DNA of 64,000 nucleotides. It comes from Escherichia coli 042. GTDB taxonomy: Bacteria > Pseudomonadota > Gammaproteobacteria > Enterobacterales > Enterobacteriaceae. Below are positions 17,095 to 17,731 of the stretch, in pieces. Below the pieces are notes generated by a model. That model saw only the letters and a list, made by a program, of their open reading frames with translations. It did not search any database and was not told where the DNA came from. The stretch lies in NCBI RefSeq assembly GCF_000027125.1, contig NC_017626.1; one strand, 5' to 3'. Each line of letters begins with the position of its first letter. Position 1 is the first letter of the stretch. The translations under genes and the position numbers were made by a program.

Positions 17095-17127
17095 AAATGG
17101 CGCTTTATAAAGTGCCATTTTTTTATT
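17095..17127 (+). terminator. Intrinsic terminator closing the fdnGHI transcript
   Basis: AAATGGC...GCCATTT hairpin followed by TTTTTTT on the plus strand; overlaps the 3' end of the convergent antitoxin gene. Confidence 0.5.
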
Positions 17128-17407
17128 GCGTAACCAGACGGCGTAATCGCGACACATCCACCGTTTTTTCAGCCTCTGCCAGACTCCAGGCGTTTTGCAG
17201 ATTCAGCCACATTTGCGGCGAACTGCCGATCACCACGGAAAGTTTAATTGCCATTTCTGGCGTCAAAGCTGCTTTTCCGGTCAGCAATCGGCTTGCCGTT
17301 GAGGGCGCAATTTCCATTGCTCTGGCAAACTCGCGCAGGCTGACATTAAGTTCGTCCAGTGATTCCTGAATAATGTCCCCCGGGCGGGGATGATTGGCCA
17401 TTTTCAT
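17123..17407 (-). CDS. yddM: HigA-family antitoxin (XRE-type HTH)
   Basis: 94 aa, [57 protein letters not shown]; start overlaps the upstream toxin stop (TGATG). Confidence 0.85.
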
Positions 17408-17685
17408 CAGTGATAGTCCTCGTAATCCAGTATGTATGCATCGCCATTGACGAATTCAAATGTGATTCGCCAGTTGCCCGAGACAGATATCGCCCAAATT
17501 CCATCGCGATCGCCGCTTAACGGGTGTAGTCGGTAACCGGGCATATCGATATCAGCAAGACAGCTTGCCGCATCAATCACAGCAAGTCGATGGCGTAATC
17601 GTTTGACTTGCGTCGGTATAACGCCGGAGGTTTTGCCGAGAAGAAACAAGTCACGCAATCCCTTGTGTCTGAAATTCATTATCAT
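17407..17685 (-). CDS. HigB-like toxin (RelE/ParE superfamily)
   Basis: 92 aa with HigB-type motifs (RLRHRL...[29 protein letters not shown]...DYEDYH); ATG 17683-17685 preceded by AAGGA; toxin-first order as in higBA. Confidence 0.8.
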
Positions 17686-17709
17686 CTCTTCATCCTTGTT
17701 CCCTCGAAA

Positions 17710-17731
17710 GGAACACTATCACTATTGTTCC
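17710..17731. promoter_or_regulatory. Candidate operator palindrome upstream of the toxin-antitoxin pair
   Basis: GGAACA-CTATCACTAT-TGTTCC, perfect 6-bp inverted arms with a 10-bp spacer, 25 bp upstream of the toxin start. Confidence 0.4.

Follow-up and report, generated by a model that had tools for sequence, protein, structure and literature searches.

A close described relative of the toxin-antitoxin pair considered here is the HigB-HigA system of Rts1 from Proteus vulgaris (PDB 4MCT/4MCX, 4YPB, 6CHV). It is plasmid-borne and encodes a toxin of 92 amino acids ahead of a fully folded antitoxin with a helix-turn-helix (HTH), the two genes overlapping by one base (positions 601-879 and 879-1193 of the Rts1-type sequence), and it has two operator regions, at the -35 and at the -10/+1. 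Growth assays and single-turnover kinetics have shown that His54, Asp90, Tyr91 and His92 of Rts1 HigB are critical and that Arg73 contributes, and single alanine substitutions of Arg48 or Lys57 leave its toxicity in place (PMC5027501).

GraT-GraA of Pseudomonas putida and HigBA of P. aeruginosa belong to the same families (PF05015 and HigA) and have operators composed of a central element and distal half-sites, with two dimers bound, but their sequences are far more distant from those discussed below and their half-sites are of the TTAAC/GTTAA type, within 28 bp. The N-terminus of GraT is reportedly disordered and is said to have a regulatory role. HigB-HigA of Escherichia coli K-12 (YgjN-YgjM), in turn, shares with the present pair its name and a general function, that of a ribosome-dependent RNase of the RelE superfamily with an HTH antitoxin, but YgjN is of a different toxin family, and the HTH is C-terminal in K-12 HigA (YgjM) and N-terminal in antitoxins of the CFT073/YddM type.

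The pair studied here is itself already known as a predicted module of the HigBA family. RefSeq annotates both genes, the toxin as a member of the RelE/ParE family and yddM as a 'HigA family addiction module antitoxin', and TADB 3.0 has an entry for the pair as higBA. Bustamante and Vidal (2020) listed it in the AIEC strain NRG857c as TA20, 'ParE-2/HigA-2', with genes of 279 and 285 bp that have one end coordinate in common and the same overlap as here, and reported that K-12 and HS carry the antitoxin alone at this locus; the presence of the two higBA types is opposite in these strains, K-12 having ygjNM intact and an orphan yddM and NRG857c and CFT073 the reverse (PMC7232551). The higBA genes of NRG857c and of the UPEC strain CFT073 are the same as ours, nothing substantive differing apart from the strain. 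A 2024 review, which treats the pair under ParE, states that such pairs 'remain to be characterized', and in the papers accessible to our literature search we found no toxicity or binding experiment on the higB-yddM pair. Since the module has been annotated and published, its novelty is low; it is ordinary and catalogued, and confirming it adds little. What the present analysis contributes is an operator model, deep synteny and selection data, and counts of toxin-loss alleles, additions that are useful but incremental.

The locus was analysed in a stretch of 64,000 nucleotides of the E. coli 042 chromosome (hereafter the window). The higB-like toxin gene (17407..17685, minus strand) is a 92-codon open reading frame annotated in RefSeq as WP_000605676.1, 'type II toxin-antitoxin system RelE/ParE family toxin', and the higA antitoxin gene, which is yddM (17123..17407, minus strand), encodes the 94-residue protein WP_000781370.1 with an XRE-type HTH. 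The 279-nt higB coding sequence is identical in the PGAP call and begins at the first ATG; orthologues without a second ATG, in Cedecea and Buttiauxella, open with MIRSF. Seven nucleotides 5' of this ATG at 17685 lies the Shine-Dalgarno sequence AGGA (17693..17696, minus strand), while that of yddM, GAGGA, lies 9 nt 5' of the yddM ATG, within codons 89-90 of higB. At the junction (cacTGATGaaa; TGATG at 17407..17411, minus strand) the higB TGA and the yddM ATG have base 17407 in common. A terminator scan placed a hairpin, AAATGGCGC-TTTATAAAG-TGCCATTT, with A and T runs at its sides, 3' of yddM (17095..17120, no strand assigned). The flanking genes are fdnI (16242..16895, plus strand) and adhP (17871..18881/18911, minus strand). 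An earlier note, made from the letters of this DNA, had described a toxin reading frame with HigB-type motifs preceding an XRE-HTH reading frame, a TGATG overlap of stop and start, and a position between fdnI and adhP, and all of this holds. The 771-bp higB-yddM region (17100-17870) is moreover 100% identical to that of the uropathogenic strain 118UI, in which higB is annotated. As far as can be read from the sequence, the two genes would form an operon with the toxin first and the antitoxin translationally coupled to it, YddM being made from the higB transcript by coupling at TGATG. This arrangement is conserved, the one-base overlap recurring in nearly all orthologous pairs (with the toxin match ending at 2498 and the antitoxin starting at 2501), and toxin-first order with a one-base overlap is also that of Rts1-type higBA.

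The toxin belongs with Rts1 HigB. Its only Pfam match is PF05015 (HigB-like_toxin; E=1.5e-17, residues 4-92 against model positions 2-91 of 91), its PDB search gives an ungapped alignment to Rts1 HigB (4MCT chain B, E=8e-32), and tblastn aligns it at 56.5% identity with the Rts1-type HigB gene on a Providencia IncT plasmid, so that the earlier assignment of a HigB-type toxin of RelE/ParE fold is borne out over the full length of the protein. PDB entry 6F8S is matched as well, by the toxin (chain B, E=3.8e-7) and by the antitoxin (chain A, E=1.8e-11). The check that the earlier note had proposed, an alignment with the active-site residues of HigB, reveals the full catalytic set: His54, Arg73, Asp90, Tyr91 and His92 all stand at the Rts1 positions, as they do in 22/22 further homologues (21 chromosomal ones and the Rts1-type plasmid copy), and Asn71 is retained too. 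At two basic positions close to the mRNA path the window toxin departs from Rts1 HigB, with Met in place of Arg48 and Ser in place of Lys57. By homology (the level of identity and the catalytic set), HigB would enter the ribosomal A site and cleave mRNA as a ribosome-dependent endonuclease, with His54 probably acting as the base, Arg73 steadying the transition state and the C-terminal Asp90-Tyr91-His92 taking part in catalysis.

Two other family assignments were considered and rejected. The name 'ParE-2' suggests a ParE-type poison of DNA gyrase, a label that derives from the CDD superfamily name ParE_toxin cl21503 (PMC7232551) and that agrees with the placement of the pair under ParE in the 2024 review. 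Such an activity is nevertheless scarcely credible for this protein, which has no ParE match among the Pfam profiles and carries the full catalytic set of a ribosome-dependent RNase HigB, and whose partner is a HigA equivalog rather than a ParD-type antitoxin; TADB, too, lists it as higB. The literature name therefore appears misleading, the sequence pointing to a HigB-type ribosome-dependent RNase. Nor does the toxin belong to the family of YgjN, the K-12 HigB, as the searches returned no second Pfam family, no matching NCBIfam model and no K-12 HigB chain among the PDB matches. PADLOC returned nothing for the toxin and weak HTH-level matches only for YddM, and so lends no support to a catalogued anti-phage system.

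YddM passes the cutoff of the HigA equivalog TIGR02607 (antidote_HigA; 93.7 bits against a cutoff of 47.7) and agrees at each of its 94 residues (100% identity) with PDB 2ICP/2ICT, deposited as 'antitoxin higa', a structure that the literature attributes to E. coli CFT073; the HigA-like identity proposed for it earlier is thereby corroborated. It is 40% identical to Rts1 HigA. Its recognition-helix segment, IAPSTASRL, is unchanged in 21/21 orthologues retrieved, and the Rts1 recognition helix (TPATVSRLLAGK) differs from that of YddM at several positions. To judge from the Rts1 complex and from the conservation of the pairing across genera, YddM would bind HigB and neutralise it as a fully folded HTH dimer. 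The key structural paper is said to be that of Arbing et al. (2010), and Gao et al. (2018) reportedly applied ChIP-exo to YddM, with a motif and targets in their supplements. Overall, we estimate at roughly 80% the probability that higB and yddM form an intact higBA operon on the chromosome, a type II toxin-antitoxin system belonging to the HigB-HigA family of Rts1/Proteus vulgaris.

The promoter region of higB, read on the minus strand, contains four half-sites in the order TGTTGC-N7-GGAACA-N10-TGTTCC-N7-GGAACA (17744-17739, 17731-17726, 17715-17710 and 17702-17697), a full pattern that occurs once within the 64-kb window. A putative sigma-70 promoter (17715..17742, minus strand) lies among them, with a -35 of TTGCGC (17742..17737), a 16-nt spacer and a -10 of GATAGT (17720..17715). 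A consensus promoter scan requiring 9 of 12 matches found none at this place, so that the promoter must be regarded as weak by consensus, its -35 and -10 being assigned by position and by the -10-like hexamers that orthologues have at the same place (GATAAT, TATACT, TATGAT). The earlier note had pointed to GGAACA-N10-TGTTCC (17710..17731, minus strand), placed it 25 bp upstream of the toxin start and taken it for a plausible autoregulatory operator. The palindrome is indeed perfect, but its distance to the ATG is 24 nt; the first and fourth half-sites (TGTTGC and GGAACA) were missed at the time.

The perfection of the palindrome is in itself no argument for function, and we have dropped it as one: perfect inverted repeats of this kind (6-bp arms, spacers of 0-20) number 542 in the window, or 0.85 per 100 bp, and 35 of them have a spacer of exactly 10. 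We consider the element real because it is conserved. A scan with YddM, using one genome per species, returned 41 loci, and promoters were compared for 27: 25 loci bearing the toxin (the window and 24 others) plus the toxin-less K-12 and O157 alleles. They represent about ten genera (Escherichia, Citrobacter, Cedecea, Buttiauxella, Pluralibacter, Enterobacter, Xenorhabdus, Chimaeribacter, Erwinia and one unnamed enterobacterium). The layout TGTT(G/C)C-N7-GGAACA-N9/10-TGTTCC-N7-GGAACA is common to all 27 loci, with spacer sequences that vary freely. Both outer spacers are 7 nt long in every one of the 27, and the inner one measures 10 nt at 23 loci, the remaining four, from two lineages, having 9 nt.

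These observations most likely reflect two adjacent operators, each of the form TGTTSC-N7-GGAACA, of which the palindrome forms the inner arms, with the putative -10 between them. The first, O1 (TGTTGC-N7-GGAACA, 17726..17744, minus strand), would overlap the putative -35, and the second, O2 (TGTTCC-N7-GGAACA, 17697..17715, minus strand), would begin at the final base of the putative -10 and run across the likely transcription start, predicted near 17708; both are found at 27/27 loci. The symmetry of O1 argues in the same direction, since it changes by lineage while N7 stays invariant and the half-sites are conserved. Chimaeribacter has TGTTCC as its first half-site, so that O1 is a perfect palindrome there (TGTTCC/GGAACA). 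The second half-site of Enterobacteriaceae bacterium 89, GCAACA, complements its TGTTGC with the same outcome, so changes giving perfect O1 symmetry arose twice. Pluralibacter and Enterobacter CC120223-11 also have GCAACA as the second half-site, with CGTTGC as the first, a pair that matches at 5/6 positions.

The single-palindrome model, in which GGAACA-N10-TGTTCC is itself the operator and is bound by one HigA dimer, seems unlikely to us. The palindrome is perfect in E. coli, E. albertii and many Citrobacter loci, it brackets the putative -10, and the orientation of its arms (..ACA-N-TGT..) resembles that of the ..TACA-N5-TGTA.. arms upstream of Rts1 higB. Its spacer, however, is 9 or 10 nt whereas the N7 spacers are constant, and its symmetry has been lost in three genera (Enterobacteriaceae bacterium 89, Pluralibacter and Enterobacter CC120223-11, by way of the O1 arm GCAACA), where O1 gains symmetry instead. 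Between the centres of its arms lie 16 bp, a long span for a compact HigA dimer, and the two outer half-sites, equally conserved, would be left unexplained. Autoregulation of the kind proposed earlier would more probably act through two operators than through the single one then envisaged.

With two operators, as we prefer to read the footprint, HigA dimers would repress the operon from O1, over the -35, and from O2, over the transcription start, and the invariance of IAPSTASRL in the antitoxin fits the invariance of the half-sites. The placement of these proposed sites is like that of the two operator regions of Rts1 higBA, but the Rts1 operators are built from GTATTACA/TGTAATAC-type repeats and not from TGTTCC/GGAACA half-sites. 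Placed on the Rts1-type sequence, the reported direct base contacts of Rts1 HigA (C-30, G-24, G-8 and C-2) fall on positions separated by only 6 bp, a distance that corresponds exactly to neither the N7 nor the N10 pairing, and this geometry is therefore no guide to the half-sites that a single dimer would bridge. A concrete, if proposed, operator model is nonetheless now at hand.

The genomic position of the pair is old. Directly downstream of it lies fdnI in three genomes of the Escherichia group (E. albertii, Escherichia sp. and an E. coli reference), and likewise in 12 Citrobacter genomes with a full-length toxin match, in Pluralibacter, in Enterobacter CC120223-11 and in Enterobacteriaceae bacterium 89. 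This shared adjacency indicates that the pair is ancestral at the site and was not recently inserted. A recent plasmid origin can be rejected as well: a tblastn search of plasmids found no copy above 60% identity other than chromosomes mislabelled as plasmids, true plasmid homologues all being below 60%. Chromosomal and syntenic, the pair is in this respect unlike that of Rts1. Both genes have been under strong purifying selection. Between the window and E. albertii, higB differs by 11 synonymous and no nonsynonymous changes; relative to Citrobacter spp. its dN/dS is 0.035-0.10 (at a dS of about 1-1.9), and that of higA is 0.04-0.08. In the Escherichia/Citrobacter group, higBA is therefore an ancestral, strongly selected occupant of the fdnI-adjacent site.

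Lineages of E. coli have repeatedly lost the toxin but retained the antitoxin and both proposed operators. Among 5,426 complete genomes, yddM DNA is present in 5,412 and higB DNA in 1,330, about 75% being without higB. Of the genomes with higB DNA, 545, identified by an exact match to 80 nt spanning the frameshift, have the ST131-type allele (EC958, for example), in which a 1-nt deletion at codon 32/33 leads to a stop after 35 residues and which RefSeq labels 'frameshifted'; by subtraction, higB is possibly intact in about 785 (14%). In K-12, B, C and O157:H7 the deleted segment starts just past O2 and stops about 22 nt short of the yddM ATG, leaving both proposed operators and their spacing in place; in K-12 these 22 nt only weakly resemble the 3' end of higB, and the global alignment with the window is ambiguous. 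A comparison with K-12 had been suggested in the earlier note, and it shows the toxin to be absent there and the promoter elements and yddM to be retained: all four half-sites persist with their spacing in the toxin-less K-12 and O157 alleles, and K-12 YddM is identical to that of the window, the genes differing at five nucleotides, all synonymous. The O157:H7 strain TR01 has a different deletion, which leaves the last 47 nt of higB. Two further alleles are found in strain 32A22CPO009 (K-12-type background), which has lost a segment between two AAGGAAC repeats including the -10 and the TGTTCC half-site of O2, and in the bat isolate A3, which has an in-frame deletion of 9 nt. Losses of the toxin thus extend to laboratory strains and to the pandemic ST131 clone. 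Most E. coli tolerate them, so the toxin is dispensable, and its being lost first explains why YddM has the look of an orphan regulator in K-12.

Such widespread decay raises the question of whether higB, though an intact reading frame in the window, encodes an attenuated or inactive remnant, the pair being on its way to a stand-alone transcription factor gene as in K-12. Besides the deletions and the ST131-type frameshift in E. coli, toxin decay has occurred independently elsewhere (by truncation of higB in Citrobacter sp. FP75 and by frameshifts in C. portucalensis and Xenorhabdus lircayensis), and the replacement of Arg48 and Lys57 could be taken as a sign of weakening. These two residues are, however, individually dispensable in Rts1 HigB (PMC5027501), no catalytic residue varies among the window toxin and the 22 further homologues, and higB is as strongly constrained by purifying selection as higA (dN/dS 0.04-0.10; no nonsynonymous against 11 synonymous differences from E. 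albertii). An inactive remnant is accordingly improbable, and we infer from its intactness and the selection acting on it that HigB is probably active in the 042-type allele.

The history of the locus offers a clean case of a toxin-antitoxin pair that was transmitted by vertical descent, strongly selected and at a single site across genera, and whose toxin was then lost first in most E. coli. It is possible, though we put this forward only tentatively, that the pair is not a typical mobile addiction module, being found at a fixed site next to fdnI across at least six genera, that HigB is useful to the host and that YddM has a second job. The fixed site together with a toxin dN/dS below 0.1 would suggest the usefulness of HigB, and the persistence of unchanged YddM and operators after independent toxin losses (the K-12-type deletion, the TR01-type deletion and the ST131 frameshift) would suggest the second job, which may be the regulation of other genes or a guard against incoming plasmids that carry HigB. 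If this is true, the natural polymorphism of E. coli, in which the toxin is intact, frameshifted or deleted alongside the same antitoxin, would be a ready test of the purpose of chromosomal toxin-antitoxin systems.

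The toxin-less allele carried by K-12 (positions 1487-1650 of extracted locus L001) and by O157 (positions 550-715 of L003) keeps all four half-sites of O1 and O2, the proposed YddM operators, together with their 7/10/7 spacing. Its YddM protein is identical to that of the window, the two genes being separated by 5 nucleotide differences, all of them synonymous. From the adhP terminator to O1, most of the sequence cannot be aligned with that of the toxin-bearing allele, an indication that the two alleles separated long ago. The terminator itself is a hairpin at window 17827-17861 (GCTGCGAC-N12-GTCGCAGC, then CTGTTTT) and is followed by a tract rich in C and T, about 50 nt long (window 17770-17822), which is present in the toxin-bearing allele, missing from the K-12 allele, and variable in length by a few bases between strains (match spans of 757-766 bp). 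On the other side of the pair, the gap between fdnI and yddM (window 16960-17090) contains repeats such as GCCTGATGCGCTACGCTTATCAGGCCTACA and TGTAGGCCGGATAAGGCGTCACGCCGCATCCGGCA, which on visual comparison with REP sequences known from E. coli are probably of the REP/BIME type.

Partial matches to higB were found in 2 genomes only. A second, rare deletion allele occurs in O157:H7 strain TR01 (NZ_CP033605.1, positions 495-660 of L049), where window-type upstream sequence is followed by a K-12-type O1 and then directly by the last 47 nt of higB, an arrangement suggestive of a mosaic or of a separate deletion event. Another deletion, this time in a K-12-type background, was found in NZ_CM151361.1 (positions 390-525 of L005), in which the stretch between two direct AAGGAAC repeats is missing. 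With it go the putative -10 element and the O2 half-site TGTTCC, so that yddM may not be expressed in this strain, where the usual downstream neighbour is also replaced by an IS200/IS605 transposase gene.

In the ST131 lineage, 1 nt is deleted at codon 32/33 of higB, leading to a stop after 35 aa, and the gene is labelled 'frameshifted' by RefSeq in E. coli EC958 (NZ_CP138232.1, positions 401-678 of L048, equivalent to window 17685..17407, minus strand). The exact ST131-type allele is found in 545 of the 5,426 complete genomes; this pandemic clone therefore carries a dead toxin with an intact antitoxin.

Toxin-first decay is common to the E. coli locus and to those of other genera, the toxin being truncated, frameshifted or absent and the antitoxin kept in Citrobacter sp. 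FP75 (L010), C. portucalensis (L016), Xenorhabdus (L030/L031) and Chimaeribacter californicus (L033). These losses in Citrobacter, Xenorhabdus and Chimaeribacter are independent events. The first 36 YddM residues, at 100% identity, on a 214-bp low-coverage contig of the 'Clostridium sp. CMCC3677' assembly (NZ_JAMQHS010000132.1, L037) are most likely E. coli contamination. The sole toxin match of at least 99% identity among plasmid records arises because a 4.94 Mb E. coli replicon (NZ_CP141089.1) is catalogued as a plasmid in PLSDB.

Hypersusceptibility to epetraborole, a LeuRS inhibitor, has been reported, without complementation, for the Keio yddM deletion mutant of K-12 (PMC12457515), and a CRISPRi single-cell screen is reported to have yielded new YddM regulatory connections (bioRxiv 10.64898/2025.12.20.695731). 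Each of these reports hints that the orphan antitoxin YddM has a role besides the neutralisation of HigB.
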